A stretch of DNA of 64,000 bases, from the NCBI GenBank assembly GCA_028707495.1, contig JAQWAS010000006.1, positions 664 to 64,663 of the forward strand, in the 5' to 3' direction. Under the pieces are notes generated by a model. It was not told where the DNA came from. It saw only the letters and a list, made by a program, of their open reading frames with translations, and did not search any database. Shown here piece by piece: positions 11,679 to 53,835 of this stretch (its first letter is position 1; each line of letters starts with the position of its first letter). This stretch comes from Patescibacteria group bacterium (GTDB taxonomy: Bacteria > Patescibacteriota > Patescibacteriia > UBA2591 > JAQWAS01). Both the position numbers and the translations under genes were made by a program.

Positions 11679-11840
11679 TGTCATCCCGAATTTCCGTCTG
11701 AACATCTATGGCTTTGTGTCATGCTGAATTTATTTCAGCATCTGTAATTAAGTTAAACGTTTCTTGCTCTGACAGGGTAAAAAGCATCAACAGATTCTGA
11801 AACAAGTTCAGAATGACAACTACAAAACAGAATGACAATC
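11679..11840. repeat. Copy A of the dispersed hairpin-repeat family (tgtcatcccgaa; gtcatgctgaa-N5-ttcagcatc; ttctgaa-N5-ttcagaatgacaa)
   Basis: Shares the TGTCAT..CTGAA / TTCAG..ATGACA modules with the loci at 13542, 20300, 21497 and 53609. Confidence 0.7.
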
Positions 11841-11929
11841 TCTAGCGTTAATAGACTTTTAAATATCCTCCGGTTCGGCTGGTTAGTTGCCACCCTAAAT
11901 CCCACGGACATTCTGCTAAATTTTTTTAA

Positions 11930-13075
11930 CTAGTAAATCGGCGATATCTTTCTTAATTTTTGAATAATGTTTGGTAAAATTTTAATTAAATAATCAATCT
12001 CTTTTAAAGTATTAAAACGACTTAAACTAATTCTTAAGCTACTATTAGCTAGTTCATCAGATAAGCCAATAGCTTTTAAAATATAACTTGGTTCTAAGGT
12101 TAAGGCCGAGCAAGCCGACCCAGTTGAAGTGGCAATCCCTTTATCATCTAATAATTTACCCAAAGATTCGCCTTCAACACCCTTGAAAGAAAAATTGATA
12201 TTATTACACAAACGTTTTTTACCGGTTGGGCCGTTTAAATATGTATCAGGAATTTTTTGAATTTCTTTGATTAATTTATCACGCAATTGAGTCATTTTTA
12301 AAATATCTTTTTGTTTGGCTAATTCAACAGCTTTACTAAAACCAATGATTGCTGGAATGTTTTCAGTGCCGGCTCTTAATTTATGTTCATGATTACCGCC
12401 ATGTTGCCAAGGTTCAATTTGTGTACCATTTTTAACATACAAAGCGCCAATGCCTTTAGGCCCGTGGATTTTATGAGCATTTAAACTAACCAAATCTAGA
12501 TTAAATTTTTTAACATCAATTTCGGTTTTAGTATAGCTTTGACAAGCATCAGTATGAAAATAGATTTTGTGTTGAGCACAAATTTTACCAACAGCTTCTA
12601 AATCTTGAAGAGTGCCAATTTCGTTATTGGCATGAATAATTGAAATCAAAATAGTTTTGGGAGTGATGGTTTTTTTGAGTTCATTTAAATCAATAAAACC
12701 GTGTTTATCAACTGGCAAATAAGTAATTTTAAAGCCTTGAGTAGTTAACCATTTACAAGAGTTTAAAACAGCTTTATGTTCAATTTGAGTGGTAATAAGA
12801 TGATTACCCTTTTTTTTATTAGCCCAAGCGATCCCTTTCAAGGCTAAATTATCACTTTCAGTTCCGCCAGAAGTAAAAATTATTTCGTTAGGTTTGGCCT
12901 TGATTGATTGAGCAATAATTAAACGACTTTTTTCTAAATCCTTTTTAGATTTTAAACCACAAGTGTGCAATGAGGAGGCATTGCCATAAAAATTCATTAA
13001 ATATGGTTGCATAGCTTTAACAACTTGCAGATCAGTTTGGGTTGTGGCCGCGTTATCAAAATAAATATGTTTCAT
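11930..13075 (-). CDS. nifS: Cysteine desulfurase (class V aminotransferase, NifS/IscS)
   Basis: PLP-binding lysine region (SLNAHKIHGPKGIGALY) and active-site Cys (STGSACS), 381 aa. Confidence 0.9.
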   Translation of the reverse strand: MKHIYFDNAATTQTDLQVVKAMQPYLMNFYGNASSLHTCGLKSKKDLEKSRLIIAQSIKAKPNEIIFTSGGTESDNLALKGIAWANKKKGNHLITTQIEHKAVLNSCKWLTTQGFKITYLPVDKHGFIDLNELKKTITPKTILISIIHANNEIGTLQDLEAVGKICAQHKIYFHTDACQSYTKTEIDVKKFNLDLVSLNAHKIHGPKGIGALYVKNGTQIEPWQHGGNHEHKLRAGTENIPAIIGFSKAVELAKQKDILKMTQLRDKLIKEIQKIPDTYLNGPTGKKRLCNNINFSFKGVEGESLGKLLDDKGIATSTGSACSALTLEPSYILKAIGLSDELANSSLRISLSRFNTLKEIDYLIKILPNIIQKLRKISPIY

Positions 13076-13175
13076 AAAATTTTATTTAAGATTGTTTTAA
13101 ATATAGCATAGAACAGTTTTTTTTTCAATTTTAAAAGCCATTTCAAAAATTTAAAATGGCTTTTAATAATGTGTT

Positions 13176-13505
13176 TTACAATGTATTTAGGATATCGTTT
13201 TTTAAGGCATCTTTTTGTCTTAAACCAACAAATTCTTTAATAGAGATGCCATTTTTGAATAATTTCATCGCTGGAATGCTTTGAATTTGATATTCTTCAA
13301 CTAATTGTTGGTTAGCTTCGGCACTAATATCAACTTTTACAATTTTAACTTTATCAACTAAATCTTGAGCGAGTTCATCTAAAATTGGTCCCATCATTTG
13401 GCAAGGGCCACACCATGGTGCCCAAAAATCAACCAAAACAGGTAAGTCTGATTTTAAAACTTCAGACTCAAAATTATCCTGAGAAATATTTAATGCTTGT
13501 GACAT
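13176..13505 (-). CDS. trxA: Thioredoxin
   Basis: WAPWCGPC active site, 109 aa. Confidence 0.9.
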   Translation of the reverse strand: MSQALNISQDNFESEVLKSDLPVLVDFWAPWCGPCQMMGPILDELAQDLVDKVKIVKVDISAEANQQLVEEYQIQSIPAMKLFKNGISIKEFVGLRQKDALKNDILNTL

Positions 13506-13541
13506 AAGATTATTGATTATTAATTAAGAATTATAGTTTTT

Positions 13542-13695
13542 TGTCATTCTGAATTTAACGAAGTGAAATGAAGAATCCCGTGAGACCTGCCTGCCGGCAG
13601 GCAGGTAACGAACCAATGTTTTAAAGTGTTTTTTGCAAACCTCACGGGATTCTATCAGTCGCCTGCTGAATCGGCAGGCTCCTTCCAGAATGACA
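13542..13695. repeat. Copy B of the dispersed repeat family; a 154 bp MITE-like element with perfect 10 bp terminal inverted repeats (TGTCATTCTG...CAGAATGACA)
   Basis: The terminal inverted repeats are seen directly. Internal nested palindromes include gaatcccgtgag/ctcacgggattc and the 20-nt perfect palindrome cctgcctgccggcaggcagg. Confidence 0.75.
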
Positions 13696-13704
13696 GCTTT
13701 TAAA

Positions 13705-14850
13705 TTAATTTATACCAATTAAATAATAAAAACCTAAACCTAAAAGTAGTATTGCCTCAATCAAAGTAATCCACACAACAAATTTTTGCGAACCCAATCT
13801 AATTTTCATAGTAAAAACCGCGATAACAAAAATTACAATTTCATCCAACATATAGAAAAAGACAAATAAGGTAATACACAAAACATAGCTTAGGGCAGTT
13901 AAATTAGCTTGAGAGAGCAGGCCGGCATAAAAAAGTGGTAAGGCGGCTGAGCAAGGGAACTCAATTAAGGTAATAACACCAGCAAAAACAATAATCGCGC
14001 CAACGAGACTTAAGGTGCGACTGGGTTGGGTGAAGGCAGATTTTAATTTAGTTGAAATTTTAGTCATAGCCTGACTCATACCACAATTGGGGCCATATTT
14101 TAACATACGAATAAATTGATAAATTAAATAAATTCCGCCGATTAAGCCAAGACAACCAATTACAACTTCCATGGAGCGCAAATAATTACCTAAAATATTA
14201 AAAAGTTTATACCAAAAGCCAATCAATAAACCATATAAAATAGCCGTTGTTAAAATAAAAGTTAAACCTAGACCAAATATTTTTTTACGTGATTTTAGGG
14301 TCAAAACTAGACCTAAAATAAAAACCAAAGCACCCAGAGAGCACACATTAAAACCATCAAAAAAGCCGAACATAACTGCTAAAATTGGTAAGGAATATTT
14401 TTCAATATCTATGTGGCCAATAATTGGTAGATGAATATCATTTTCGTCATCATCTTGACATTCAGTATTAGATTCTTGTTGTTGATCAGTTAGATAATCA
14501 ATTTTATTTTGTAGGTTAATTTGAGTTGTTTGGCCAAAACCTAAAAGGTATTCATCTTGGATAAAAGTTATTGGTACCAAGCCATGGATATTTTGAGGCA
14601 CATTATATTGCTGATAAAAACTTTTTAGCAGATCAACATTTTCTGATTGAGCCAATGAATAATAATTAATTTTTAAATCACAACCCTCTTTTTCTGTTTT
14701 CTGTAAAAAGCTTTTTTCTTGGGCACAATGGGGGCAAGACTCACTATAAAAAAAATTAATTTCATTATTAATTTCTTGTGCCAAAGTTAATTTAGGCAGC
14801 CAAGTTAAGCTGACTAAGATTAAAACTAAACTTAAAAATAATTTTTTCAT
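13705..14850 (-). CDS. Thiol-disulfide oxidoreductase fused to a CcdA/DsbD-type transmembrane domain
   Basis: Signal peptide, an N-terminal thioredoxin-fold with a CPHC motif, then a polytopic membrane domain with the conserved Cys pair of CcdA/DsbD-like proteins. Confidence 0.65.
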   Translation of the reverse strand: MKKLFLSLVLILVSLTWLPKLTLAQEINNEINFFYSESCPHCAQEKSFLQKTEKEGCDLKINYYSLAQSENVDLLKSFYQQYNVPQNIHGLVPITFIQDEYLLGFGQTTQINLQNKIDYLTDQQQESNTECQDDDENDIHLPIIGHIDIEKYSLPILAVMFGFFDGFNVCSLGALVFILGLVLTLKSRKKIFGLGLTFILTTAILYGLLIGFWYKLFNILGNYLRSMEVVIGCLGLIGGIYLIYQFIRMLKYGPNCGMSQAMTKISTKLKSAFTQPSRTLSLVGAIIVFAGVITLIEFPCSAALPLFYAGLLSQANLTALSYVLCITLFVFFYMLDEIVIFVIAVFTMKIRLGSQKFVVWITLIEAILLLGLGFYYLIGIN

Positions 14851-14934
14851 ATTTGAAAATTATAATATTTTTTAAACTTTATTTCAAGTTAATCAAAAAA
14901 TCCCACCAAGGGCGTGGGAAATTTTGACAAGATT

Positions 14935-15132
14935 TTATCTTGGTCGGGTCATTTTGGCTCCGCATTTAGGGCAGTCACATTCATAGCAGGGACAGCCTCT
15001 TTGATGATCAATTTTTTCGCCACAAGAAGGGCAAACACATTGACCATCTGGACCTAAACCTTGACCTTGAGGTTGTCGTCCTCGTCCTTGACCAAATCCT
15101 AGACCACGACCAGGTGCATTTGTATTAGGCAT
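14935..15132 (-). CDS. Small Gly/Cys-rich zinc-binding protein (65 aa)
   Basis: MPNTNAPGRGLGFGQGRG... followed by CxC..C / CPCYECDCPKC; it recalls the small partner proteins encoded next to DUF134 genes. Confidence 0.45.
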   Translation of the reverse strand: MPNTNAPGRGLGFGQGRGRQPQGQGLGPDGQCVCPSCGEKIDHQRGCPCYECDCPKCGAKMTRPR

Positions 15133-15157
15133 ATGTTTTTTAGTTAAAAATTAGTAA

Positions 15158-15454
15158 TTATTTTTTTAATCTATAATTGCCACCATCAACTTTAATAGCT
15201 GAACCATTGATTAGGGCTTGGGCAATTTTTTTCTGGGCTGAAACTAAAACGCGATGAAAGGTTGAACGTGAAACTTGCATTTTTTTAGCAGCTTGTTCTT
15301 CGGTTAACTCTTGAATGTCATGCAAACGAATAGCTTCTATTTCTTCAAAAGTTAATTGAATTTCGGTTAAATTTTTAAGACGTTGACCAGCTGGTTTAAA
15401 ATAAGTACAGCGTGGTTGTTGGCCGATGCGTCTGCATCTACACGGTCTAGGCAT
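15158..15454 (-). CDS. DUF134/UPF0251-family putative DNA-binding protein
   Basis: MPRPCRCRRI...FKP N-terminus plus an HTH-like LTEEQAAKKMQVSRSTFHRVL region. Start chosen at MPRP (15454) rather than the upstream ATG in the ORF track. Confidence 0.65.
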   Translation of the reverse strand: MPRPCRCRRIGQQPRCTYFKPAGQRLKNLTEIQLTFEEIEAIRLHDIQELTEEQAAKKMQVSRSTFHRVLVSAQKKIAQALINGSAIKVDGGNYRLKK

Positions 15455-15591
15455 AAAATTATTTTTAAAGTTATCCACAGTTATGAACATATGTTCATTA
15501 TTATTATAGCAAAGTTATCAACAATGTCAAGAGTTTGTTCTATTTAAAATTATGATATAATAAAAATAACTTAATTTTTAATTTTAAAAAT

Positions 15592-16503
15592 ATGCAACAA
15601 CAAAAAAATTCACCTAACTCTAATGGAATTTTTGGATTTTTATCTGTTATAATTGTTTTTTTACTTGTTTTATCTCCAACTTTAATTAAATCAATAATCA
15701 GTGGATCTAAGAGTGGGGTTGACGGTGGTATTGTTGGAATTGTGGCAATTATAATTATGTTTTTAAGTTTAGCGGTTATTGTTGGGTTAGGTGGTTTACG
15801 TGTAATTAATCAGTATGAGCGTGCGGTTGTTTTAACACTAGGCAAATATACAGGAACTAGAAACCCAGGATTAACTTGGATATTTCCTGGTATTCAAAGA
15901 ATTATTAAACCAGATTTAAGAATAACTACTGTTGATATTCCTCAACAAGAAGTAATTACCAAAGATAATGTTACGGTAGGTATAAATGCAGTAGTTTATT
16001 TTCGTGTTGCTATTCCAGAAAGAGCAGTTTTAGAAATTCAAGATTATTCGCGAGCCGTAGCTTTATATGCTCAAGCTACATTAAGAGATATCGTTGGTGG
16101 AGTTGAATTAGACGCATTTTTATCAGAGAGAGATAAAATTGCTGATGAAATAAAAAAAATTGTTGATGTAGCTACTGATCCTTGGGGAATTGATGTAACT
16201 ATAATTAAAATTCAAGATATTGAATTGCCAGCTGACATGAAACGAGCAATGGCCAAACAGGCAGAAACAGAAAGAGAGAGAAGGGCAGTAATTATTAAAG
16301 CCCATGGAGAATTAAGTGCTTCAGAAAATTTAAAAAAAGCAGCTGAAAATTTAACTTCAGTTCCTGGAGGTTTATCATTAAGAACCTTGGCAACTATTGA
16401 AAATATTAATCCCGATCCATCAAAAATGGTTATCTTTGCTTTACCAGTTGAAGTTTTAGAAGGGTTTAAATCTTTACAAAATTTAAAAGAAAAACAAAAA
16501 TGA
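15592..16503 (+). CDS. SPFH/Band-7 (stomatin/prohibitin-like) membrane protein
   Basis: N-terminal TM region then an SPFH domain (VDIPQQEVITKDNVTVGINAVVYFRV...) and a coiled-coil tail. Confidence 0.85.
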   Translation: MQQQKNSPNSNGIFGFLSVIIVFLLVLSPTLIKSIISGSKSGVDGGIVGIVAIIIMFLSLAVIVGLGGLRVINQYERAVVLTLGKYTGTRNPGLTWIFPGIQRIIKPDLRITTVDIPQQEVITKDNVTVGINAVVYFRVAIPERAVLEIQDYSRAVALYAQATLRDIVGGVELDAFLSERDKIADEIKKIVDVATDPWGIDVTIIKIQDIELPADMKRAMAKQAETERERRAVIIKAHGELSASENLKKAAENLTSVPGGLSLRTLATIENINPDPSKMVIFALPVEVLEGFKSLQNLKEKQK

Positions 16504-16760: not shown

Positions 16761-16765
16761 TAAAT

Positions 16766-16814: not shown

Positions 16815-16818
16815 AAAA

Positions 16819-17469
16819 TTATTTGATAATATTTAAAAATTCTTTAATTAATTTATTAGTTTTTTCATTTAAATAATAAAAATCTTTCCATAAAACAACG
16901 ATATCAGCATTATTTAACACAGAACTTTTAATTTCTTGAATTGTATCGCCACCAGCTACAGAAATAAAAATTTTATTATAACTACCTTTAATTTGTTTAA
17001 TTTGATAATAGGGAATTAATTTTTCATTATTTTTTGTTTCGTCAACTCCTCTATGCAAGATAACTGCATCGGGCAAAGTTTTTAGTTTTTTTAAAATTAA
17101 AAGAGGATTTTCAACATTCATCATATCAATCATTGAATCAATATGATAATGGTCACATAATTCAATAAATTGTTTGATAGTTTCAATTGGTGCTACGCCT
17201 AAACAAGTAATAGCATTGGCACCGGCTTGAGCAAATAATTCTACTTCTCTATAAGCAAGATCGGCACACTTAGTATCAGCAACAAAATAAGAAGATGGGG
17301 CCACTTTTTTTAAGGTTGCTACGGCAAGTGCGCCATAAATTTTAATTAAAGGTGTTCCAATTTCAATTAAAATTCTTGGTGAAATAGGCAATTTAGAAAT
17401 AATAGCTTGTGCATTATTTAAATTACTATTGAGAGCAATTTGAATATATTTTTGGTGTCTTTGTAACAT
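16819..17469 (-). CDS. 3-hexulose-6-phosphate synthase-like (OMPDC-family ribulose-phosphate-binding barrel), paralogue 1
   Basis: LQIALN...IEIGTPLIKIYG...VADTKCADLA aligns with B. subtilis HxlA (LQLALD...VEIGTPVIKIWG...LADMKTMDAA). Confidence 0.65.
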   Translation of the reverse strand: MLQRHQKYIQIALNSNLNNAQAIISKLPISPRILIEIGTPLIKIYGALAVATLKKVAPSSYFVADTKCADLAYREVELFAQAGANAITCLGVAPIETIKQFIELCDHYHIDSMIDMMNVENPLLILKKLKTLPDAVILHRGVDETKNNEKLIPYYQIKQIKGSYNKIFISVAGGDTIQEIKSSVLNNADIVVLWKDFYYLNEKTNKLIKEFLNIIK

Positions 17470-17488
17470 AATTATTATTTAACAAAAA

Positions 17489-18157
17489 TTAATATTTTAA
17501 TGTTTTAAGAAATTCTTTAGCTAGTTGGCTTGTTTGTTTAGAATTATTATTGAATAATCGCCAAACAACAGCAATATTAGCATCATTAAAAATAGCACGT
17601 TTAACTTCTTTAATATTTTCGCCTCCAGCAATGGAAATTAAAACACGATAGGTTGCTTTAATTAAGTGAATTTGATGATAAGGAATTTGTTTTTCTCTAT
17701 TATTAGATTCATCAACTCCTCGATGAAGAATAACAACATCAGGAATTAATTTTAATTTTTTTAAAATTTCAAAAGGAAATTCAACATTCATCATATCAAT
17801 CATTGAATCAATATTATGTTTAACACAATTAGAAATAAATTCGTTTATTGTTTCAATTGGAGCTAATCCTAAACAAGTGGCCGCCTGAGCGCCAGCGCGG
17901 GAAATTGACGCGATTTCTCGTGAACCACGATCCATACATTTTAAATCAGCTACAATATATCCTGGTTTGCCAAGTTTTTTTTGCCAATAATTTTTAAGAT
18001 AAACAATGCCCTGTTCGCCATAAGTTTTTATTAAAGGCGTACCCGCTTCAATTAAAATTCTATCTGAAGTTGGTAAAGAATCAATCATTTGTTTAATTTC
18101 ATCTAAAGATTGATTAAAGGCAATTTGCAAATAAGTTTTTCTATGATTAAGAGTCAT
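17489..18157 (-). CDS. 3-hexulose-6-phosphate synthase-like, paralogue 2 (tandem duplicate)
   Basis: About 45% identical to the upstream paralogue; the same motifs (IEAGTPLIKTYG, ADLKCMDRG, IDSMIDMMNVE). Confidence 0.65.
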   Translation of the reverse strand: MTLNHRKTYLQIAFNQSLDEIKQMIDSLPTSDRILIEAGTPLIKTYGEQGIVYLKNYWQKKLGKPGYIVADLKCMDRGSREIASISRAGAQAATCLGLAPIETINEFISNCVKHNIDSMIDMMNVEFPFEILKKLKLIPDVVILHRGVDESNNREKQIPYHQIHLIKATYRVLISIAGGENIKEVKRAIFNDANIAVVWRLFNNNSKQTSQLAKEFLKTLKY

Positions 18158-20299: not shown

Positions 20300-20632
20300 G
20301 AGCCATTGCGAGGAGCGTAGCGACGAGGCAATCTCTTACGAAATAGAATTTAATGCGTTGATTTACGGGATTGCCACGTCGTCGGATTACCTCCTCCTCG
20401 CAATGACACTTCGGAAGTAAGATTGCCGCCTGCCTGCGGCGGGCAGGCGTCGTTCGCCGAATTGGCAAACTCCTCCTCACAATGACACACATCTAAAGTG
20501 TCATGCTGAACTTGTTTCAGCATCTGTAGTTGGATTAAAATTTGTTATTTTAAATAGACATCATGAGTGTTTACAGATCCTGAAATAAATTCAGGATGAC
20601 AAAAGACAAATTCAGAATGACATCGATAATCA
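20300..20632. repeat. Copy C of the dispersed hairpin-repeat family (gtgtcatgctgaacttgtttcagcatctg; cctgaaataaattcaggatgacaa; ttcagaatgaca; GC-rich palindrome gcctgcctgcggcgggcaggcg)
   Basis: The 30-mer agtgtcatgctgaacttgtttcagcatctgt is identical to one at 53705-53735. The annotated ORF 20229..20492 lies over this repeat and is probably spurious. Confidence 0.7.
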
Positions 20633-20672
20633 ACAAAAAGTGCAATAAGTGTGTACACATTACCAATATACC

Positions 20673-20701
20673 TTGACAAGAAATTTAATTTATGCTAGAA
20701 T
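20673..20701 (+). promoter_or_regulatory. Strong sigma70-type promoter P1 (TTGACA-17-TAGAAT with TGc extended -10), a member of a six-copy promoter family
   Basis: TTGACAAGAAATTTAATTTATGCTAGAAT matches sites at 55939, 56911, 49931(-), 47068(-) and 53552(-). Confidence 0.7.
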
Positions 20702-20849
20702 ATAGATAGATAATAATTATGGTTCTTTGATATAATATTTAATTGCGAAAAGAACAGACTGTTAATGCGGTTGGTTGGTTATCTGACTGATTGCCTTAGT
20801 GGTCTACTCTTTTCGCAATTATACAAAACAAGTTTTCCAAGGAGGAAAG

Positions 20850-21341
20850 ATGGAATGGTGCAAGCAAGACGGTATCATTTATTTCACTGTCACTAGTGAC
20901 ACGACCGGCGAAGGGTGGATCGAGCGTTTCAAAGACCAAGGATTCGATGTTAGCGATTACGCCCAAGGCGTACTTCGTTCACCGGATTTCAAACCGACGA
21001 AGGGAGTGACAAGAAAAATTGCTATCATCATGGGTACAACCTGGGATCATTATAGAGATAGGACCACCAAAAACATCCGTGCCAAGGCATCAGAGCTTGG
21101 CTTTACCACCCCAAGTGGTGAAGTCGCCTGTCTTATCAAAGAGCAATTCTCTGACGAGAAGATTAAAGCCATGGGTCTTTACTGGATTGTCACCATGCAC
21201 GAGCCCATTTATGTTAACGGCGATCCGTTGCTACTCGACGCTAGCATCTCCCGGGTGGTCACGTACTATGGCAATCCCGACAGGAGGTGGAGCCGTGGCG
21301 ATGGGTTCGCTTTCGAGGTCCCGCAAGTTTCTGGCTCTTAA
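20850..21341 (+). CDS. Hypothetical 163 aa protein with GC content well above its surroundings
   Basis: Start chosen at the ATG at 20850, which is preceded by AAGGAGG; the ORF-track start at 20799 lacks an RBS. Promoter P1 lies upstream and an intrinsic terminator downstream. No signal peptide. Confidence 0.55.
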   Translation: MEWCKQDGIIYFTVTSDTTGEGWIERFKDQGFDVSDYAQGVLRSPDFKPTKGVTRKIAIIMGTTWDHYRDRTTKNIRAKASELGFTTPSGEVACLIKEQFSDEKIKAMGLYWIVTMHEPIYVNGDPLLLDASISRVVTYYGNPDRRWSRGDGFAFEVPQVSGS

Positions 21342-21496: not shown

Positions 21497-21633
21497 TGTC
21501 ATTCCCGCGTAGGCGGGAATCCAGGGTTAACAACTTTTAACTTTTTATAGAATAAGCCATATTTAATTTAAAGAGATTTTTTAAATTAAAGTATTTATTT
21601 AATCAATCCTGGATCCCCAATTAGGGATGACAA
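21497..21633. repeat. Copy D of the dispersed repeat family; about 137 bp with terminal inverted repeats TGTCATTCCC...GGGATGACA and an internal hairpin cccgcgtaggcggg
   Basis: The terminal inverted repeats are related to copy B (TGTCATTCTG). Confidence 0.65.
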
Positions 21634-29664: not shown

Positions 29665-30402
29665 ATGATATCTAAAAATTATAAAATCATAATTTCAATT
29701 CTATTGTTGTCGTTATTTTTTTTACCACAAGTTTCTCAAGCTAAATTATTGCCAACACCAACCGGCAGTTGTCCAAATAATTTAAGTTGTGTTGACGGCA
29801 AATGCAGTGGTACTACCTTAGAATGTAATTACACTCTAGATGATATTTTAAGAGGCTTTGTAGATTTTAGTGAGTGGTTATTAAAAATTTTAGGAACCAT
29901 TGCTCTGCTAATGTTTGTAGTTGGTGGGGCAATGTATTTAACGTCTGGTGGCAATGAAGAAAAAGTCAAACAAGGTACGGCTATTTTAAAGGGAACAATT
30001 ACGGGTATTATAATTGCTTTATTGGCTTGGACAATTGTGCATTTTGTTTTAGTAATTTTAAATGTAGACCCCAAATATCAAGCCGGTCTAACTGGAGCTG
30101 GGGTAAGTGATGCTTGCGGAACCACACCGGCAACATCTGGTTACGATTGTATGGAATTGACTTCATGTAACCTACCTAGTGATTTAGATTATTGTCGGAT
30201 TGATAATCAATGCTATCGAGGAATGTGTATGAGTAATTCGAGTCAGACGGTTGTGTGTTGTAAGCCGTTATCAACTTGTGGGAGCGGTAGTCGTCAATAT
30301 TGTTTTTGCCGAGAAAATTGTTTGGGCACGGATGAACATTTGTCGAGCAATGATAGTGATTGTAATTCTGGTCAGTGTTGTTGTTTAAATTATCTTCCAT
30401 AA
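29665..30402 (+). CDS. VirB2/TrbC-like pilin-family protein with Cys-rich N- and C-terminal extensions
   Basis: Core FVDFSEWLLKILGTIALLMFVVGGAMYLTSGGNEEKVKQG with a second TM helix, shared with the three downstream paralogues; about 20 Cys in the extensions. Confidence 0.6.
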   Translation: MISKNYKIIISILLLSLFFLPQVSQAKLLPTPTGSCPNNLSCVDGKCSGTTLECNYTLDDILRGFVDFSEWLLKILGTIALLMFVVGGAMYLTSGGNEEKVKQGTAILKGTITGIIIALLAWTIVHFVLVILNVDPKYQAGLTGAGVSDACGTTPATSGYDCMELTSCNLPSDLDYCRIDNQCYRGMCMSNSSQTVVCCKPLSTCGSGSRQYCFCRENCLGTDEHLSSNDSDCNSGQCCCLNYLP

Positions 30403-30415
30403 TAAATAAAAATAT

Positions 30416-30790
30416 ATGACATATAAAAAAATTATCATTGGTATTATATTAAGTCTGTCATTTTTTAATTTTTTAATTATACCAATTTTAGCACAAACGA
30501 ATGCTTCGCCAAGTACAGTATCAATATCTAATCCAATTCCAGAAAATGATCCTAAAATTTTAGTTGGTAAAATCATTAAGGCCTTTTTGGGATTTTTGGG
30601 CACAATTGCTTTGGTAATGGTTATTTACGGTGGCTTTATGTGGATGACGTCAGCCGGTAATGAAACTAAAATTGAAAAGGGTAAAAATACTTTATTGTGG
30701 GCAGTCATTGGTTTGGCGACAATATTTTTAAGTTATACTATTCTAACAATGGTTTTTAATGCTCTAGAAGGAAAACCGATTTTTGGTTAA
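30416..30790 (+). CDS. VirB2/TrbC-like pilin-family protein
   Basis: Signal peptide, GGFMWMTSAGNETKIEKGK motif, C-terminal TM helix. Confidence 0.65.
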   Translation: MTYKKIIIGIILSLSFFNFLIIPILAQTNASPSTVSISNPIPENDPKILVGKIIKAFLGFLGTIALVMVIYGGFMWMTSAGNETKIEKGKNTLLWAVIGLATIFLSYTILTMVFNALEGKPIFG

Positions 30791-31003
30791 AGATCGGCTT
30801 GTTGTGGATAGTTTTTTTGTGGTATAATAATTTAATAGTGATAATAATTAATAATATCTTTTAAAAATTTGTCTAGATTAAGGTTATAAATTAGAATCCG
30901 TTTGGGGAGGTTTAATGTTAATCAACATTGCCCACCTGAGGCGGACTAATAATTTGTAACTAAATCAAAGATTTAGACAAATTATTAGAAAGGGGGTGAA
31001 AAT

Positions 31004-31381
31004 ATGAAAATTACAAAAAAACATTTATTAGCTGGTGTCTTTTCTGTTTTTGCGATAAGTATGTTAGTTGTGCCAGCAGTTTTGGCACAGAATATGCCAA
31101 ATTTGCCTAATAGTCAATATGCAATTAGTAATTTAGAGAATCAACAAGATATTATGAATAGAATAGAAGGTATAATTAATTCTATTTTAGCCTTCTTGGG
31201 ATTTATAGCCGTTATTATTATGTTAATTGGTGGTTTTTTGTGGATGACAGCTGCTGGTAATGAAGAAAAAGTAGAAAAAGCCAAAAAAACTATTGGTGCG
31301 GGCGTAATTGGTTTAGCTATTATTTTATTATCTTGGATTATAGTCAGAATCGTTTGGTTAATTTTGATAAATCAATGGTAA
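31004..31381 (+). CDS. VirB2/TrbC-like pilin-family protein
   Basis: Signal peptide, GGFLWMTAAGNEEKVEKAK motif, C-terminal TM helix. Confidence 0.65.
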   Translation: MKITKKHLLAGVFSVFAISMLVVPAVLAQNMPNLPNSQYAISNLENQQDIMNRIEGIINSILAFLGFIAVIIMLIGGFLWMTAAGNEEKVEKAKKTIGAGVIGLAIILLSWIIVRIVWLILINQW

Positions 31382-31392
31382 AAGAATATTAA

Positions 31393-31803
31393 ATGAAAAT
31401 CGAATTTAAAAAAATATTAATTATAATATTTATTCTATTGATTTTACCAATCACAGTTTTGGCTGATAATTATGGACTTGATGTAACAGCGAACGTGGCT
31501 GGTTTAAAAAATGCAGATATAGATGTTATGGCCAGAACAGAAGAGATCATAAATGCTATTTTGGGTTTTTTAGGCTTTATAATGGTATGTTTAATAATAT
31601 ATAGTGGTTTTATGTGGATGACTTCGACTGGTAATGAAGAAAAAATTACTAAAGCTAAAAATACATTGAAAGCGTCTATTATCGGTTTTGCTATTATTAT
31701 GCTAGCCTGGGTAATAATTACGGTTGTTTGGGGTGTCTTAGTCGGCGAACCAATTTTTAGTGGAGGTACGGGTGTGACCGGTGGAATAAATGTACCTCAC
31801 TAA
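31393..31803 (+). CDS. VirB2/TrbC-like pilin-family protein
   Basis: Signal peptide, SGFMWMTSTGNEEKITKAK motif, C-terminal TM helix, Gly-rich tail. Confidence 0.65.
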   Translation: MKIEFKKILIIIFILLILPITVLADNYGLDVTANVAGLKNADIDVMARTEEIINAILGFLGFIMVCLIIYSGFMWMTSTGNEEKITKAKNTLKASIIGFAIIMLAWVIITVVWGVLVGEPIFSGGTGVTGGINVPH

Positions 31804-44720: not shown

Positions 44721-46397
44721 ATGCCAACCCAAAATTTTTTTAAGGACGAAAGCCGAAAGAAAAATCAACAATTACACGAAAAACTAGGAGATATTAAAAT
44801 AAAAGAAAAAGAACGTGTAGTTCAAACGCAAGCAGTTATTTTAGGTATAAATTATATTAATTTAGTTGGTTTTGCTATTTCCGATGAAGCTTTAAGAATT
44901 CTCCCAAAAGATAAAGCCGAAACATTAAAAACTATTTGTTTTTTATTAGAAAATAAAGAATTGCGTTTGGCTACGGTTGATTCGACTAATGTGGCTGTTC
45001 AAGATTTGGCCCAAGAATTAAGTCGACAAGGTTATCATGTTGAAATTTATTTAACTTCGCAACATTCTTTCGACAAGGCTTTACAGTTATATGAGCGTTT
45101 GCCTAAAATTAAAGAAGTCACCGTGGGGGTAAAAATTAGCCAAAATGATTTTGAGTTATATAAGAATAAAATTAAAAAATTAAGTGATGTACAGGCTGAA
45201 ATTCAGGATGCTGACATTTCTAAAATTGTAACCGTAATTATTGCTGCCGCGGTCCAAGCTGAGGCCTCAGATATTCACGTTGAAGCTGAAGAAAAAGATA
45301 TTAAATTGCGTTATCGTATTGATGGTGTTTTACAAGATGTTGCAATTTTAGATAAAGAATTGTGGAAAAATTTAAATTCTAGAATTAAATTATTAGCCAA
45401 ACTGAAAATTAATATTATCGACCAACCTCAAGACGGTCGGTTTAGTATTTTTTTGCACGATCAGAAAATTGACGTCAGAGTTTCATGTTTGCCAACTAAT
45501 TTTGGTGAAAGCGTGGTGATGCGTTTATTGACGGGGACAGCCACTAGTGTAGAATTTGAAAGCTTAGGATTAATTGGTCAAGCCTTTGAACAATTATCAC
45601 AGGAAATTAAAAGACCCAACGGGATGATTTTAACCACTGGGCCAACTGGTTCGGGTAAAACAACAACCCTATACGCTATTTTGAAAAAAATTAAAAATTC
45701 ACAAACTAAAATTATTACTTTAGAAAATCCAATCGAATATCAGCTAGATGGTATTAGTCAAAGTAATGTAGATATAGATAAGGGTTACGGATTTGCTGAT
45801 GGTTTAAAATCAATTTTACGTCAAGATCCAGATGTGATTATGGTCGGAGAAATCAGAGATTATGACACGGTTGATACGGCTATTAACGCAGCCCTAACCG
45901 GCCATTTGGTTTTATCGACTTTGCACACTAATAGTGCTGCAGCAACTATTCCGCGTTTTTTATCGATGGGAGCTAAGCCATTTTTGTTGGCCCCATCTTT
46001 AAATGTTATCATTGCGCAACGTTTAGTTAGGCGAGTATGTGAAAAATGTAAACAAGAAATCCAACTATCAGAAGCTGATTTAGAAAAAATTAAAAAAATT
46101 TTACAATCCATACCAGAAGCTATGCGCCAGGGAATTGATTTAGAAAATTTAAAGTTTTATCATGGTCAAGGTTGTGAAAGTTGCCAAGGAATCGGTTATA
46201 AGGGTCGAATTGGTATTTATGAAGTTTTGACTATGAATGAAGAAATCGAAAAAATGGTTTTGAACGAAAAAGTATCAGAATATGATATTTTAAACATTGC
46301 ACAACAAAACGGTATGGTGACGATGGTGCAAGACGGCTTATTAAAAGCTTTACAGGGTGTTACTTCAGTAGAAGAAGTTTTCCGAGTAGCTGAATAA
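44721..46397 (+). CDS. GspE/PilB-family secretion/pilus assembly ATPase
   Basis: Walker A GPTGSGKTTTLYA, Asp box, Walker B and His box; C-terminal tetracysteine (CEKC...CESC), 558 aa. Confidence 0.85.
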   Translation: MPTQNFFKDESRKKNQQLHEKLGDIKIKEKERVVQTQAVILGINYINLVGFAISDEALRILPKDKAETLKTICFLLENKELRLATVDSTNVAVQDLAQELSRQGYHVEIYLTSQHSFDKALQLYERLPKIKEVTVGVKISQNDFELYKNKIKKLSDVQAEIQDADISKIVTVIIAAAVQAEASDIHVEAEEKDIKLRYRIDGVLQDVAILDKELWKNLNSRIKLLAKLKINIIDQPQDGRFSIFLHDQKIDVRVSCLPTNFGESVVMRLLTGTATSVEFESLGLIGQAFEQLSQEIKRPNGMILTTGPTGSGKTTTLYAILKKIKNSQTKIITLENPIEYQLDGISQSNVDIDKGYGFADGLKSILRQDPDVIMVGEIRDYDTVDTAINAALTGHLVLSTLHTNSAAATIPRFLSMGAKPFLLAPSLNVIIAQRLVRRVCEKCKQEIQLSEADLEKIKKILQSIPEAMRQGIDLENLKFYHGQGCESCQGIGYKGRIGIYEVLTMNEEIEKMVLNEKVSEYDILNIAQQNGMVTMVQDGLLKALQGVTSVEEVFRVAE

Positions 46398-48135: not shown

Positions 48136-48137
48136 AT

Positions 48138-49163: not shown

Positions 49164-49176
49164 TTTAAAAAAGATA

Positions 49177-49204
49177 AAACCCGACTTTTGTGCCGGGTTT
49201 GTTT
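49177..49204. terminator. Bidirectional hairpin terminator (aaacccgac...gccgggttt)
   Basis: Stem followed by T-tracts on both strands, between convergent queA and the lipoprotein gene. Confidence 0.6.
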
Positions 49205-49211
49205 GGAGAGG

Positions 49212-49904: not shown

Positions 49905-49930
49905 TCTACACTATTTTTATTTCTATTTAC

Positions 49931-49959
49931 ATCTTAGCATATATTTAATTTCTTGTCAA
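49931..49959 (-). promoter_or_regulatory. Promoter P4 of the six-copy family (TTGACAAGAAATTAAATATATGCTAAGAT, minus strand)
   Basis: Reverse complement of 49931-49959; -35 TTGACA, 17-nt spacer, -10 TAAGAT. About 20-nt leader to the AAAGGAG RBS. Confidence 0.7.
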
Positions 49960-50004
49960 GAGTTGCTTTGTTTAAATATTTAAGCTATAATAATTTGAGA
50001 TTCA

Positions 50005-50079
50005 GGCGCGATAGCCAAGTGGTAAGGCGACGGTCTGCAAAACCGTTATTCACGGGTTCGAATCCCGTTCGCGCCTCCA
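50005..50079 (+). tRNA. tRNA-Cys (GCA), CCA encoded
   Basis: Acceptor GGCGCGA/TCGCGCC, anticodon stem ACGGT/ACCGT with loop CTGCAAA (GCA), T-loop TTCGAAT. Confidence 0.85.
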
Positions 50080-50130
50080 AAATAAAAAAAAACACCCCTT
50101 GGGTTTTTTACTAAATTTTTTGAAATAAAT

Positions 50131-50625
50131 CTAACTTAACTCTATTCTAATTTTTTCTAATTCTAGGCCAAGATCAAGGCCTTGTTTTTTGTATTTAACT
50201 CCAATTTCGCTTATAATTTGATATAAATTTTCTCCACGGGCTACGCGTTGCTGAATTTCGACTTTAATTTTTTCGGTGATTATTTCCTTATATTTATTTT
50301 CTAATTCAGAGCTAGGCCATTCTTCACGATTACTGTTTTTGATTTTTTCTAAAGCCAAAAGAATAATTTGATTTAAATCAATGGGTTCAGAAGAAATTTG
50401 ATTTATATCGATTAAAATATCATTGACTTTTTTGCTCCAATTCAACCAATCAACATCAACGCCCTTATTATTTAAATTATTAATTTCAGAAATAACGTGA
50501 TTAACGGCCTGATCTATTTTATCTTGCAAAATTATATGAGAAGATTCTCTTTCGTGAGCGCAAGTAACCATATTTTTAAATTTAAAATTATATTTTATTT
50601 TATTAAAAATAATCAAAGCTGTCAA
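50131..50625 (-). CDS. Hypothetical protein (164 aa; the real start may be the internal Met at MVTCAHE)
   Basis: ORF only; no recognisable motifs. Confidence 0.4.
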   Translation of the reverse strand: MTALIIFNKIKYNFKFKNMVTCAHERESSHIILQDKIDQAVNHVISEINNLNNKGVDVDWLNWSKKVNDILIDINQISSEPIDLNQIILLALEKIKNSNREEWPSSELENKYKEIITEKIKVEIQQRVARGENLYQIISEIGVKYKKQGLDLGLELEKIRIELS

Positions 50626-50663
50626 CTTTTTTAATTTTATAAAAAGCGTTATAATATAAGATT

Positions 50664-51572
50664 ATGAATCAAAAAGATAAATTTATTATTATTGATGCTA
50701 ATGCGGTTTTACATCGAGCTTGGCACGCCTTACCGCCACTTGAAACAGAGAGTGGTCAGGTTGTGAATGCAGTTTATGGTTTTATTTCAGTTATAATTAA
50801 AATTTTGCGGGAATTTAAGCCAAATTATATGGCGGCGTGTTTTGATATGCCAGGGCCGACTTTTAGACATAAAGAATTTAAAGAATATAAAGCGGGACGA
50901 GAAAAACAACCTGATGAATTTTATGAACAAATTCCAATCACTCAAGGCGTTTTAAAAGATTTTGATATTCAAGTTTTAGGTTTAAGCGGTTATGAAGCTG
51001 ATGATTTGATCGGTTTTTTGTCTCACAAGGTTGATGGCGGTTTAGAAAAAATTATTGTGACTGGCGACATGGATGCTTTGCAATTAGTAGATAAATCAAC
51101 TTGGGTTTATAATTTAAAAAAAGGTATCAGCGAAACTGAAATTTTTGATGAAGCCGCTGTTTTCGAAAGATATGGTTTTAAGCCTGAGCAATTAATTGAT
51201 TATAAAGCTTTACGTGGAGATCCCTCTGACAACATCCCGGGAATTAGAGGAATTGGCAAAAAAACAGCGACACAATTAATTCAGCAATTTAGTTCATTAG
51301 AAGTTTTATATCAACAAGTTGAACAAGGTGAGGTTGAAGGTGTCAGTCAAAGGATTAGGCAAATGCTTTTAGATCAAAAGGATCAAGCTTTTTTAAGTAA
51401 AAAATTAGCCACCATTGTTTTGGATGTTCCTTTGGATTTTAATTTAGAAAATTTTAAAACTAAAAAATTAGATGTAGATAAAATTAGTGTTAAATTTAGT
51501 CAATTGGGATTTAAATCTTTGTTAAAAAGACTAGATGATGTCGTTGGTATTAAGCAGGAAAAATTGATTTAA
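50664..51572 (+). CDS. Stand-alone 5'-3' exonuclease (Pol I N-terminal / FEN-like domain)
   Basis: IIIDANAVLHRAWHA..., the acidic metal-binding clusters, and a helix-hairpin-helix (GIRGIGKKTA), 302 aa. Confidence 0.85.
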   Translation: MNQKDKFIIIDANAVLHRAWHALPPLETESGQVVNAVYGFISVIIKILREFKPNYMAACFDMPGPTFRHKEFKEYKAGREKQPDEFYEQIPITQGVLKDFDIQVLGLSGYEADDLIGFLSHKVDGGLEKIIVTGDMDALQLVDKSTWVYNLKKGISETEIFDEAAVFERYGFKPEQLIDYKALRGDPSDNIPGIRGIGKKTATQLIQQFSSLEVLYQQVEQGEVEGVSQRIRQMLLDQKDQAFLSKKLATIVLDVPLDFNLENFKTKKLDVDKISVKFSQLGFKSLLKRLDDVVGIKQEKLI

Positions 51573-51584
51573 ATTTTTTTAATT

Positions 51585-52556
51585 ATGATTATTTATCTGT
51601 ACGGTCAAGATGATTTTCGAATTCATCAAGACTTACAAACAATCAAAAATAAATTTTTAAAACAAGTTGATCAATCGGGTTTAAATTTTAGTTATTTAGA
51701 TGGCAGTGATTTAAAAATTGATCAATTTCGCCAAGCGGTTTTAGTTTCAGGTTTTTTAGCTAAGAAAAGAATGGTGGTAATTAAAAATTTATTAACCACA
51801 GGTCGGGATGAAAATTTAATAACTGAAATTTTAACTAATTTTAAAAAATTAGAACAGCAGGAAGATGTGGTGATAATTTTTATTCAGACCGATGAATTGA
51901 AAAATATTCGTACTCAGGTTAAAAAAGATCTTTTAAATAAATTGGTAAAAAGTCAGTACGCCAAAGAATTTAAATTATTAAAAAATAAAGATTTAATAAA
52001 TTGGATAAAAAAAGAAGTTAGCCAACTCAAAGCCAAAATTGAACCGACTGCCATTGAATTGTTAATTAATTATTTAGGCAATGATTTGTGGAAAATTAAT
52101 AACGAGATTCACAAATTAGTAGCTTATAAAAGTGGTCAAATTATACAATCAGTAGATGTGGAATTGATGGTTAAAGCTGATTTAGATGAAAATATTTTTA
52201 ATTTAACCGATGCCATTGCTAACCAAAACAAGAAGCAATCTTTAAAATTAATTCAACAGCAATTAACGGATAGTGGTGCTTGGTTACGAATTTTAAATAT
52301 GATCAGTTATCAGTTTCGTAATTTAATTATTTTAAAAAGTTATTTAAATGAACATGGCTATAGCAATCAATATGGTTTAGCTAAAGGATTAGGTTTGCAT
52401 CCGTTTATAATTCAAAAAAGTTTAAATCAAGTTGATAAATATTCTTTGCCACAATTAAAAAAAATCTATCATCAGCTTTTAGAGATAGATTTACAAATGA
52501 AAACTAAGAGTTTGAATCCAGAGGTTTTATTAGATAAATTGGTAGTCGAGAATTAG
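51585..52556 (+). CDS. holA: DNA polymerase III delta subunit-like
   Basis: N-terminal MIIYLYGQDDFRI plus size and clamp-loader-like helical C-terminus. Confidence 0.55.
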   Translation: MIIYLYGQDDFRIHQDLQTIKNKFLKQVDQSGLNFSYLDGSDLKIDQFRQAVLVSGFLAKKRMVVIKNLLTTGRDENLITEILTNFKKLEQQEDVVIIFIQTDELKNIRTQVKKDLLNKLVKSQYAKEFKLLKNKDLINWIKKEVSQLKAKIEPTAIELLINYLGNDLWKINNEIHKLVAYKSGQIIQSVDVELMVKADLDENIFNLTDAIANQNKKQSLKLIQQQLTDSGAWLRILNMISYQFRNLIILKSYLNEHGYSNQYGLAKGLGLHPFIIQKSLNQVDKYSLPQLKKIYHQLLEIDLQMKTKSLNPEVLLDKLVVEN

Positions 52557-52613
52557 TTTTTATTCAAACAAAAAAGCAATTCAATCAAGAATTACTTTTT
52601 TTATTTATCAAAA

Positions 52614-52886
52614 TTATTTTTTCTTGTCAGTTTTATTAGCTTTTTTCATTAAGCCTGATTTTTTGCGAGCGGCCGTGTTTTTTTTAAAAACATTATTTTT
52701 GGCAGCTTTATCAATAGCCTTTTGGGTTTTTTGCATCCATTCATTAATTTTGGATTTATCACTCTGATCAATAGCTTTTAATGTTTGTTTAACTAAATAT
52801 TTGATATTAGCTTTAATATCTTTATTGTGTTGTGTTCTTTTAATCTCTTGACGAAGAGACTTTTTAGCTGATTTTGATTGTGGCAT
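52614..52886 (-). CDS. rpsT: Ribosomal protein S20
   Basis: MPQSKSAKKSLRQEIKRTQHNKDIKANIKYLVK matches the S20 consensus. Confidence 0.8.
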   Translation of the reverse strand: MPQSKSAKKSLRQEIKRTQHNKDIKANIKYLVKQTLKAIDQSDKSKINEWMQKTQKAIDKAAKNNVFKKNTAARKKSGLMKKANKTDKKK

Positions 52887-52919
52887 ACTATATTAAATAA
52901 AAATTAAAAATTAAAAATG

Positions 52920-53234
52920 TTAAGCCAGGTCGTCATAAATATCCTCTTCGTAGTTATCTTCTTCTTCGGCTGGCATTTCATCTAGAAGTTGAGCTTCTTG
53001 TTTAATAATTTCATCCCAGGTTTTATCACTTTGACCGGTCAAGGCTTCAAATTTGGCTTTAAAATTATCATTAAAATCTTTAATTAATTCAGGTTCTTGC
53101 TCAAAGATTTCATTTAATTTTTCTAGCACACCTTCTGGTAAAATAGGTAAAAAAACAAGAAGGTCATTTTGATCTTCTGGCGAAACCTGCGATGTACTTA
53201 AGGTCTGTTCTATTTTTTTTAATGCTTCAGACAT
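52920..53234 (-). CDS. Hypothetical acidic 104 aa protein
   Basis: ORF with very acidic C-terminus; likely co-transcribed with 53254..53445 from promoter P6. Confidence 0.4.
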   Translation of the reverse strand: MSEALKKIEQTLSTSQVSPEDQNDLLVFLPILPEGVLEKLNEIFEQEPELIKDFNDNFKAKFEALTGQSDKTWDEIIKQEAQLLDEMPAEEEDNYEEDIYDDLA

Positions 53235-53253
53235 CCTCCTAAATCAATAATAA

Positions 53254-53445
53254 TTAAGCAGCTTGTCGATATTTACGTTCGATAAGGTTGGGGTTTCTTT
53301 TCTCGTTATCACATTCATTTGTTATAAAAGCAGCAGCTATAGCCAAGTTTTCAGATTCTTCTCTAATAAAAGCTAAATTAGGCTCATGTTCATGAGTTTC
53401 TTTGTTGGCAATTTCTTCAATTTGTGGATTATATGTTTCTGACAT
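53254..53445 (-). CDS. Hypothetical 63 aa protein
   Basis: ORF immediately downstream of promoter P6. Confidence 0.35.
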   Translation of the reverse strand: MSETYNPQIEEIANKETHEHEPNLAFIREESENLAIAAAFITNECDNEKRNPNLIERKYRQAA

Positions 53446-53551
53446 ATTTTTTGTTATCCCCAGTTAAACGACCTTTAAGTATATTATAATACATTAAAGA
53501 TTTTTTGTGAAGGGATTTAATTAAACAAGGTGTTAATTAAATTGATACACC

Positions 53552-53580
53552 ATCTTACACCCGATCTAAATTCTTGTCAA
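53552..53580 (-). promoter_or_regulatory. Promoter P6 of the family (TTGACAAGAATTTAGATCGGGTGTAAGAT, minus strand)
   Basis: Reverse complement of 53552-53580; -35 TTGACA, 17-nt spacer, -10 TAAGAT. The spacer is less conserved than in P1-P5. Confidence 0.55.
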
Positions 53581-53608
53581 GGGGTAAGCGGGGGATAATG
53601 TTAAAAGA

Positions 53609-53835
53609 TGTCATTCTAAATCCGCCTGGAGTGGATGAAAGAAATTGTCATGCTGAACTTTAGTCAGCCAAATCGGAGGATGTTTCAGCATCCGTTAGTA
53701 TGGGAAGTGTCATGCTGAACTTGTTTCAGCATCTGTTAACGCTTAAAATATTGATTCTTAAAAAACGTTTTTTTTCGACCACAGATCCCTGAACTGAATT
53801 CAGGGCAGGCTCTGAAATAAATTCAGGATGACAAT
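53609..53835. repeat. Copy E of the dispersed hairpin-repeat family (two gtcatgctgaac...ttcagcatc hairpins; ccctgaactgaattcaggg; ctgaaataaattcaggatgacaa)
   Basis: Contains the same 30-mer as copy C and the same 23-mer ctgaaataaattcaggatgacaa. Confidence 0.7.

Follow-up and report, generated by a model that had tools for sequence, protein, structure and literature searches.

What are the repeats that lie between the genes of a 64,000-nt stretch of Patescibacteria DNA, and do they form a mobile element of their own? The stretch (contig JAQWAS010000006.1 of assembly GCA_028707495.1, a metagenome-assembled genome (MAG); hereafter the window) contains five repeat loci: A (11679-11840), B (13542-13695), C (20300-20632), D (21497-21633) and E (53609-53835). 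An earlier note, made from the letters of the window, described them as a dispersed, hairpin-rich and MITE-like family (MITE, miniature inverted-repeat transposable element) that has terminal inverted repeats (TIRs) opening with TGTCAT. All five loci are present and their sequence reads as described; the family is a genuine one, dispersed, modular and based on hairpins. Every locus is intergenic and, in a window that is about 85% coding, the five total 1,013 bp, or 10.6% of the intergenic DNA. The loci are very probably clusters of Ssn-related motifs (SRMs), i.e., CGTC/TGTC-tagged repetitive extragenic palindromic sequences (REPs). The repeats belong to an already described family, for which Patescibacteria are unreported as a host group.

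SRMs flank ssnA, a gene for a 94-aa single-domain GIY-YIG protein (CDD cd10448), and were found near 71% of ssnA homologues; the Neisseria motif, NTS, reads CGTCATTCCCGCGMAVGCGGGAATCYRG (Chenal et al., 2025, Nat Commun 16:2388, PMC11893778). SsnA binds its motif as single-stranded DNA (ssDNA) only, in one orientation, and cuts a few nt upstream; it does not bind RNA. Critical parts of the motif are the three nt that precede the palindrome and the C that follows it (PMC11893778). In N. meningitidis, the system lowers the integration of NTS-containing transforming DNA, and the NTS-ssnA-NTS arrangement was likened by the authors to an insertion sequence, mobility not being demonstrated (PMC11893778). 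The CGTC-tagged REPs were described as families CGTC-1 to CGTC-4, occurring in five phyla and including Neisseria dRS3 and Rickettsia RPE-4 and RPE-6 (Di Nocera, De Gregorio, Rocco, 2013, BMC Genomics 14:522, PMC3733652). They consist of a CGTC or TGTC tag, an 8-9-bp stem opening with AT, a 4-5-nt loop and a 3-nt tail, and are mainly arranged as head-to-head dimers with 20-100-bp spacers (PMC3733652).

The repeated thing in the window is a self-contained hairpin unit and not the end of a longer element. In its canonical form, TGTC-AT-N-CTGAA-YTTRT-TTCAG-N'-AT-C(TGT), it is a 27-nt hairpin with an 8-bp stem, a 5-nt loop, an unpaired 5' TGTC and a C directly after the stem. The generalised unit has an unpaired 5' tag (T/C)GTC, an 8-bp stem opening with AT, a loop of 4-5 nt and the C after the stem. 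What had been read as a TIR is the 5' tag together with the 5' half-stem of this complete unit. The pattern TGTCATNCTGAA has nine matches on both strands of the window against 0.04 expected from dinucleotide-preserving shuffles, all of them within loci A-E; likewise, 17 of the 39 TGTCAT/ATGACA hexamers of the window fall inside the 1,013 bp of the loci.

The same unit occurs far outside the window. A scan of representative genomes with TGTCATNCTGAAYTTRTTTCAGNATC returned at least 120 loci, and the counts given below are among the matches listed. Bacteroidota, Spirochaetota, Nitrospirota, Proteobacteria, Firmicutes and Melainabacteria are represented, among other groups, as is a bin assigned to Nanoarchaeota (the MAG L014, with the exact CTGAA unit), and MAGs of the Candidate Phyla Radiation (CPR)/Patescibacteria make up 24 of the 120. 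When the window was compared with these loci by BLAST, the common segment was the unit of about 30 nt only. Across 131 instances, taken from 120 other genomes, the conserved block has precisely the limits of the unit, with random sequence on either side. Stem changes across genomes are compensatory: of 136 cases, the two free N positions of the search pattern are Watson-Crick paired in 126 (C:G 57, G:C 48, T:A 19, A:T 2). In an alignment of 57 sequences, GTCA of the tag and the C after the palindrome (C26) are invariant. Other genomes also contain arrays of 98-114-bp doublets with conserved spacers.

Extrachromosomal and viral DNA carries the unit too. It was found on 14 plasmids or chromids, and the exact CTGAA form in 39 IMG/VR viral contigs (L202-L240), just one of which also encodes an ssn-like protein; in cultured phages no unit was found. 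The Sphingobium yanoikuyae plasmid NZ_CP060123.1 has two doublets of tagged hairpins (L241, 1501-1782) close to the terminal inverted repeat, on its inner side, of a Tn3-family transposon, which several Sphingomonad plasmids have in common at 100% identity; hairpins can therefore hitch-hike on conventional transposons. The four other doublet-carrying records are 99.5-100% identical over the shared segment, with no polymorphism seen.

Which protein, then, accompanies the unit? Clustering of every open reading frame (ORF) from the 120 listed loci gave a sole recurrent non-housekeeping family, a GIY-YIG protein of about 95 aa (Pfam PF01541), with a subfamily called ssn-like here. Every ssn-like gene in these loci has a unit directly upstream, in the orientation of the gene. 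At L097, L104 and L108 an inverted unit also stands directly downstream, the gene being exactly bracketed (at L108 the stop codon falls in the loop of the right hairpin), and at L070, L087 and L103 the gene is arranged in tandem with units. To avoid circularity, a further set of loci was chosen by protein alone: six of these GIY-YIG proteins were aligned and metagenome contigs were searched with them. Of the 600 candidates, 565 held up on confirmation, and the best 80 of the 565 were used. The gene has a flanking (T/C)GTCA-tagged hairpin, oriented as expected, in 62 of these 80 best loci (upstream in 51, downstream in 52). When no hairpin was required, 108 of the 159 correctly placed GTCA[TC] tags had a hairpin (at least 7/8 paired) after them; among the other tags of these loci the share was 91 of 554. 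The ssn-adjacent hairpins, a set preselected for pairing, show double-sided changes at seven of eight stem pairs (71 cells against 16 expected, a number reached in 0 of 500 shuffles).

The association extends to the host group of the window. The L108 protein has close homologues annotated in the CPR lineages Buchananbacteria and Daviesbacteria; in those contigs a compact CTGAA doublet directly follows the ssn gene and, in one, a CGTCATTGCGAGCGAAGCGAAGCAATC (TTGCGAG-class) unit directly precedes it. In CPR, ssn is thus linked with two of the classes found in the window. The gaps of tags-outward pairs are bimodal, either 0-80 bp and gene-less (91 pairs, those of the window included) or 250-400 bp with ssn (41 pairs), and only three pairs have a gap of 100-250 bp. 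The doublets have the layout of an ssn cassette minus its gene, and the bimodal spacing is what one would expect of doublets that come from cassettes or are copied as cassettes are.

Two local arrangements were observed beside ssn-like genes. In the gammaproteobacterial MAG L097 (7180-7360 and 7770-7990), these genes adjoin long arrays of 5' half-sites (TGTCATCCTGAAC plus 5-7 nt), and the 461-bp Winogradskyella contig L070 consists of tandem ssn cassettes. The half-site arrays and tandem cassettes suggest repeated local amplification at these sites.

The units of the window, with their coordinates and strands, are the following.

A0, 11679..11707, + strand: degenerate unit, TGTCAT tag with decayed hairpin (TGTCATCCCGAATTTCCGTCTGAACATCT); imperfect inverted match to A2.
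A1, 11717..11743, + strand: canonical CTGAA-class unit TGTCATGCTGAATTTATTTCAGCATCT, left arm of doublet A; fold -6.8 kcal/mol, z -4.2.
A2, 11792..11818, - strand: canonical unit TGTCATTCTGAACTTGTTTCAGAATCT, right arm of doublet A, about 48 nt from A1.
A3, 11829..11838, - strand: half-site TGTCATTCTG (tag plus 5' half-stem), 10 nt past doublet A.
B1, 13542..13584, + strand: variant unit, TGTCAT-TCT, 21-nt loop, AGA-ATC-CCGTGAG; folds weakly.
Palindrome, 13585..13606, no strand: perfect, GC-rich, 22 bp, ACCTGCCTGCC/GGCAGGCAGGT, in the spacer of doublet B.
B2, 13641..13695, - strand: variant unit, right arm of doublet B; TGTCAT-TCT, 33-nt loop with GCCTGCCG...CAGCAGGC hairpin, AGA-ATC-CCGTGAG.
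C1, 20303..20334, + strand: TTGCGAGGAG-class unit, tag decayed (GCCATTGCGAGGAGCGTAGCGACGAGGCAATC).
C2, 20369..20408, - strand: TTGCGAGGAG-class unit TGTCATTGCGAGGAG...GACGTGGCAATC, doublet partner of C1.
C3, 20421..20487, - strand: TTGYGAGGAG-class unit, loop with GC-rich palindromes (TGTCATTGTGAGGAGGAG...GGCAATC).
C4, 20499..20525, + strand: canonical CTGAA-class unit, left arm of doublet C, in the exact 32-mer common to E2.
C5, 20575..20601, - strand: canonical unit TGTCATCCTGAATTTATTTCAGGATCT, right arm of doublet C.
C6, 20611..20622, - strand: half-site TGTCATTCTGAA, 9 nt past doublet C.
D1, 21497..21524, + strand: NTS-type unit TGTCATTCCCGCGTAGGCGGGAATCCAG, left arm of doublet D; 4-nt loop; fold -8.9 kcal/mol, z -4.0.
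D2, 21605..21632, - strand: degenerate unit of the NTS type, TGTCATCCCTAATTGGGGATCCAGGATT, right arm of doublet D, with an AT-rich spacer of 80 nt between it and D1; folds no better than shuffles.
E0, 53609..53620, + strand: half-site TGTCATTCTAAA.
E1, 53646..53692, + strand: interrupted CTGAA-class unit, 26 nt between the arms instead of 5.
E2, 53708..53734, + strand: canonical unit, left arm of doublet E.
E3, 53784..53833, - strand: CTGAA-class unit, right arm of doublet E, its 3' arm split by a 24-nt GC-rich palindromic insert.

The units occur as solo units, as half-sites and as tags-outward (head-to-head) doublets. Loci A, C and E each hold a doublet of two inverted units (11717-11818, 20499-20601 and 53708-53833), of about 103 bp in A and C and of 126 bp in E, where the right unit carries an insert. 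The unit spacing in all three is about 48 nt (50-51 by automated gap scoring), and they have the hairpins in common, the similarity of their spacers being weak. The layout of doublet plus half-site is near-identical in A and C (10 nt against 9 nt to the half-site). Tags-outward doublets are formed by A, B, C1-C2 (with the decayed C1 tag), C4-C5, D and E, and span about 100-155 bp. Stem classes number at least four in 64 kb: CTGAA, the NTS-like CCCGCG, TTGCGAGGAG, and TCT...AGAATCCCGTGAG. The third is represented by three units in C, TGTCATTGYGAGGAG...GACGWRGCAATC; the class of C2 was found in seven unrelated loci and upstream of a CPR ssn gene as well. The fourth form, that of doublet B, is TGTCAT-TCT...AGA-ATC-CCGTGAG with long loops.

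Every canonical unit has the TGTC tag before its stem, and the tails after the stem are CTG, or CCA in D1. The stems of A1, A2, C4, C5, D1 and E2 are 8 bp long, with loops of 4 or 5 nt; folded as DNA, the canonical units except the degenerate D2 reach -5.3 to -8.9 kcal/mol (z -2.8 to -4.7). B1, B2 and C1-C3 have 5-bp outer stems with large loops. Some units carry foreign palindromes within the loop or an arm, some half-sites are decayed, and the motif GCCTGCC is enriched within the loci. The inverted organisation, the composite or nested copies and the REP-like nature which the earlier note had recognised are all borne out by this anatomy. Its details were mostly accurate: the perfect 10-bp terminal inverted repeats of B are at 13542-13551 and 13686-13695, and the 23-mer shared by C and E is exact (20580 and 53812), the shared 30-mer being in fact an exact 32-mer (20496 and 53705). 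The TIRs reported for D amount to TGTCAT ends, which are present, plus a 14-nt subterminal inverted repeat of 86% identity. The gene beside B that had been called DsbD-like is there as an ORF (13705-14850), but without a Pfam match.

Some neighbours of the loci should also be described. The gene at 20799-21341, a 180-aa ORF without a Pfam or NCBIfam match and with a local GC content of 38% against about 31%, is bracketed exactly by C and D, which resembles the NTS-gene-NTS layout around some Neisseria genes. A promoter-like box, TTGACAAGAAATTTAATTTATGCTAGAATA, conserved over 36-41 nt, lies upstream of four genes (20667-20710, 53911-53946, 55933-55976 and 56905-56948); two of these boxes are just downstream of clusters C and E.

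Several observations weigh against the assignment of the loci to the SRMs. The published SRM pattern, HGTCWYN(0-2)YYVSBRHN(0-5)WNVSBRGN(0-2)RNCYNB, has a sole match in the window, D1 (21497), against 0.04 expected, and leaves the CTGAA-class units unmatched. Near the gene, it is found at 4 of the 80 ssn-like loci and misses 58 of the 62 in which hairpins were detected. The assignment of the CTGAA class therefore rests on the association tests and not on the published definition. Binding and cleavage properties were demonstrated for four homologues, from three Neisseria species and one Wolbachia (PMC11893778), none on a CTGAA-type hairpin. The B units and C1-C3 fold, as DNA, no better than shuffled sequence. 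The hairpin-flanked proteins are probably members of cd10448, judging from their size, single-domain architecture and association with hairpins. No ssn gene was found by tblastn within the 64-kb window, where the search returned only the GIY-YIG gene at 7795-8046; its protein scores 48 bits on the ssn-like hidden Markov model against 122-145 for members, and does not have their C-terminal WHREWKINLIE...NP..DL segment. This gene was considered as the partner enzyme and rejected, being outside the ssn-like subfamily and having no tagged hairpins adjoining it. In the PDB no solved Ssn structure was found, the matches being only the UPF0213 proteins 1ZG2 and 1YWL.

How do other explanations fare against the same data? 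The loci could be classical MITEs, deletion derivatives of an insertion sequence with a DDE transposase (e.g., IS630/Tc1) and TGTCAT TIRs, mobilised in trans. The intergenic 100-155-bp doublets with inverted TGTCAT... ends, the common layout of A and C, as if copied as a unit, and the conserved-spacer arrays of other genomes are what such elements would leave. However, cross-genome conservation is confined to the 27-nt hairpin, internal and flanking sequence being unrelated, so that a longer element to which these hairpins could belong as ends does not exist. Four of the five doublets have no flanking target-site duplication, with a possible AAAG at C only, and solo units and half-sites are common. 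No transposase was found in the window, none is recurrent near the units of the 120 listed loci, and CGTC-tagged REPs have no dedicated transposase (PMC3733652). An origin as classical MITEs from IS630/Tc1 or IS200/IS605 elements is thus very improbable. We give hardly any more than passing credence to mobilisation by a RAYT (REP-associated tyrosine transposase, a Y1 transposase of the IS200/IS605 type), as for REPs and REPINs (REP doublets forming hairpins). The architecture is very similar, in that the hairpin is tagged, doublets measure about 100 bp and are arranged head to head, units cluster between genes and recognition is of ssDNA, but the tag is (T/C)GTC instead of GTAG, no Y1 transposase is found in the window or recurrently near the units listed, RAYT genes are never flanked by CGTC units (PMC3733652), and the gene that is linked to the units encodes a GIY-YIG nuclease.

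Another proposal is that the units act mainly as RNA, i.e., as small RNAs (sRNAs), mRNA stabilisers or attenuators transcribed in operons, the link with Ssn being secondary. It can coexist with the SRM assignment, and as the main role of the units we consider it unlikely. A (nifS-nifU), B (the 13705-14850 ORF and trx) and D (the 20799 gene and a polysaccharide-synthesis gene) lie between co-directional genes and would be transcribed, and many REPs are argued to function as RNA hairpins (PMC3733652). Locus D also has sub-threshold matches to two sRNA families that embed the same hairpins, RF02748 FtrB (Francisella sRNA B; 31.5 bits, gathering 66) and RF02625 WsnRNA46 (Wolbachia sRNA 46; 22.2 bits, gathering 65.3). 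The FtrB consensus holds GUCAUUCCCGCGUAGGCGGGAAUC, identical to D1, and WsnRNA46 is, like D, a TGTCAT...ATGACA doublet with GGATCCAG/CTGGATTCC arms. These matches rest on the shared hairpins only, and so the window elements are not members of either family; at gathering thresholds, Rfam finds seven tRNAs only in the window. Against a mainly RNA-level role, the units occur in both orientations relative to transcription, and the conserved unpaired tag and strict orientation match the DNA determinants of SsnA, a protein that does not bind RNA. Finally, chance similarity or duplications restricted to this contig, to which the small number of loci in the window might point, can be regarded as already refuted. 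The nine matches against 0.04 expected contradict it, as does the identical unit in at least 120 genomes and 39 viral contigs. The earlier note would have favoured local duplication if copies were confined to the five loci; the family is pan-bacterial, which removes that reading. In addition, an independent assembly (a Logan fragment), identical to the window, has a contig end at 11713, 4 nt upstream of the start of A1 at 11717, consistent with a multi-copy sequence in the sample.

If the five loci are SRM clusters, a cognate ssn gene may be located elsewhere in this Patescibacteria genome, or may have been there recently, and the units of the window would be the sites of that Ssn. The repeats might have been multiplied by an Ssn-dependent process, or one of recombination or replication, on ssDNA. 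Where Ssn is present, it would be expected to nick single-stranded copies of its sites, e.g., in incoming transforming DNA. Gene-less doublets may have arisen via deletion from a cassette or through the copying of doublets as units; the common doublet-plus-half-site layout of A and C suggests copying. It can be speculated that half-site arrays and interrupted units reflect repeated breakage and repair at the sites. A further-reaching and tentative idea, which we think more doubtful than probable by some distance, is that the doublets are REPIN-like non-autonomous mobile elements propagated by Ssn, acting as a GIY-YIG single-strand transposase. In a streamlined, probably competence-dependent genome, several classes of element would then be maintained, one inserting into the loops of another, perhaps with no resident ssn gene. 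The bimodal spacing, the conserved-spacer arrays, the A/C layout, the interrupted units and the cross-phylum spread are compatible with this idea, and none of them shows movement. To our knowledge, single-strand transposition chemistry of GIY-YIG enzymes is not yet demonstrated.

No close relative of the source genome turned up in the collections, the nearest non-identical homologue of NifS being 68% identical. Apart from an identical protein of a Patescibacteria MAG, the best homologues of NifS (11930-13075) are 62-68% identical, and those that are named are mostly from DPANN archaea (Woesearchaeota, Nanoarchaeota, Aenigmatarchaeota); this comparison of proteins suggests that the nifS-nifU pair may have undergone inter-domain transfer.

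The window contains other repeats and unusual features. Five tandem 44-bp copies, three of them identical, occupy 7457-7720, starting inside the 3' end of tRNA-Phe (7391-7465) and running up to the 83-aa YhbQ/UPF0213-type GIY-YIG gene (7795-8046), which is followed by tRNA-Pro. The first copy repeats the 3' end of tRNA-Phe (GGCACCAC), and every copy has TTGAC-like hexamers; together they might be a small integrated element, or else an array of promoters. At 7212-7288 ARAGORN calls a tRNA-Ile with the anticodon UAU, which is uncommon in bacteria, AUA being usually read by a lysidine-modified CAU tRNA. Two GC-rich, self-complementary (CAGAGG...CCTCTG) direct repeats of 46 nt, 93% identical (62350-62395 and 63438-63483) and without an Rfam match, bracket a Fic/DOC-family gene (62411-63361). 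Four consecutive paralogous T4SS_pilin (PF18895) genes at 29665-31803 have a conserved 71-nt segment in common, and a PilB-like T2SSE ATPase is encoded at 44721-46397. Finally, two tandem paralogues of the OMP-decarboxylase/HUMPS family at 16819-18157 are 72% identical over 300 nt.

With the SRM assignment, an apparent new MITE family becomes a recognisable instance of the Ssn/SRM (CGTC-REP) system, which extends into CPR/Patescibacteria genomes. The published SRM search pattern does not detect the most widespread hairpin class, that with the CTGAA stem, and published counts therefore probably underestimate the system. The gene-containing cassettes and the gene-less doublets appear as two discrete size classes. 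If a cognate Ssn exists here, its sites mark points at which ssDNA would be cut, which could be of consequence in bacteria that are thought to depend on taking up DNA.

Among known systems, REPINs and RAYTs, reportedly introduced by Bertels and Rainey in 2011 for GTAG-tagged REPs, offer the same general plan: a doublet of about 100 bp is built from two tagged hairpins, inverted and set apart by a short spacer, and elsewhere one small nuclease or transposase gene stands between the hairpins. They differ in the GTAG tag and in the enzyme, an HUH Y1 transposase and not a GIY-YIG protein; moreover, they are lineage-specific and vertically inherited, whereas the 27-mer of the window spans phyla. 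The SRM/NTS system differs from the window in other respects. The dominant class of the window combines a CTGAA stem, rich in AT, with a YTTRT loop, the window is without an ssn gene, at least four stem classes are found within 64 kb, several units are interrupted by palindromes, and the host belongs to Patescibacteria, a group that goes unmentioned in the text of PMC11893778. SRMs are like the window units in the (C/T)GTC tag, the palindrome initiated by AT, the short loop and the C after the palindrome. The NTS of Neisseria is reproduced almost exactly by D1, and in other genomes the hairpins stand on both sides of a single-domain GIY-YIG gene of about 95 aa. Both are intergenic and clustered and can bracket genes, as the window gene 20799-21341 between C and D illustrates. 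The survey of CGTC-tagged REPs listed five phyla, with no CPR, and linked no enzyme to them, the GIY-YIG connection dating from 2025. Their tag, 8-9-bp stems opening with AT, 4-5-nt loops, short tail, head-to-head dimers with 20-100-bp spacers and freedom from a transposase are all found in the window.

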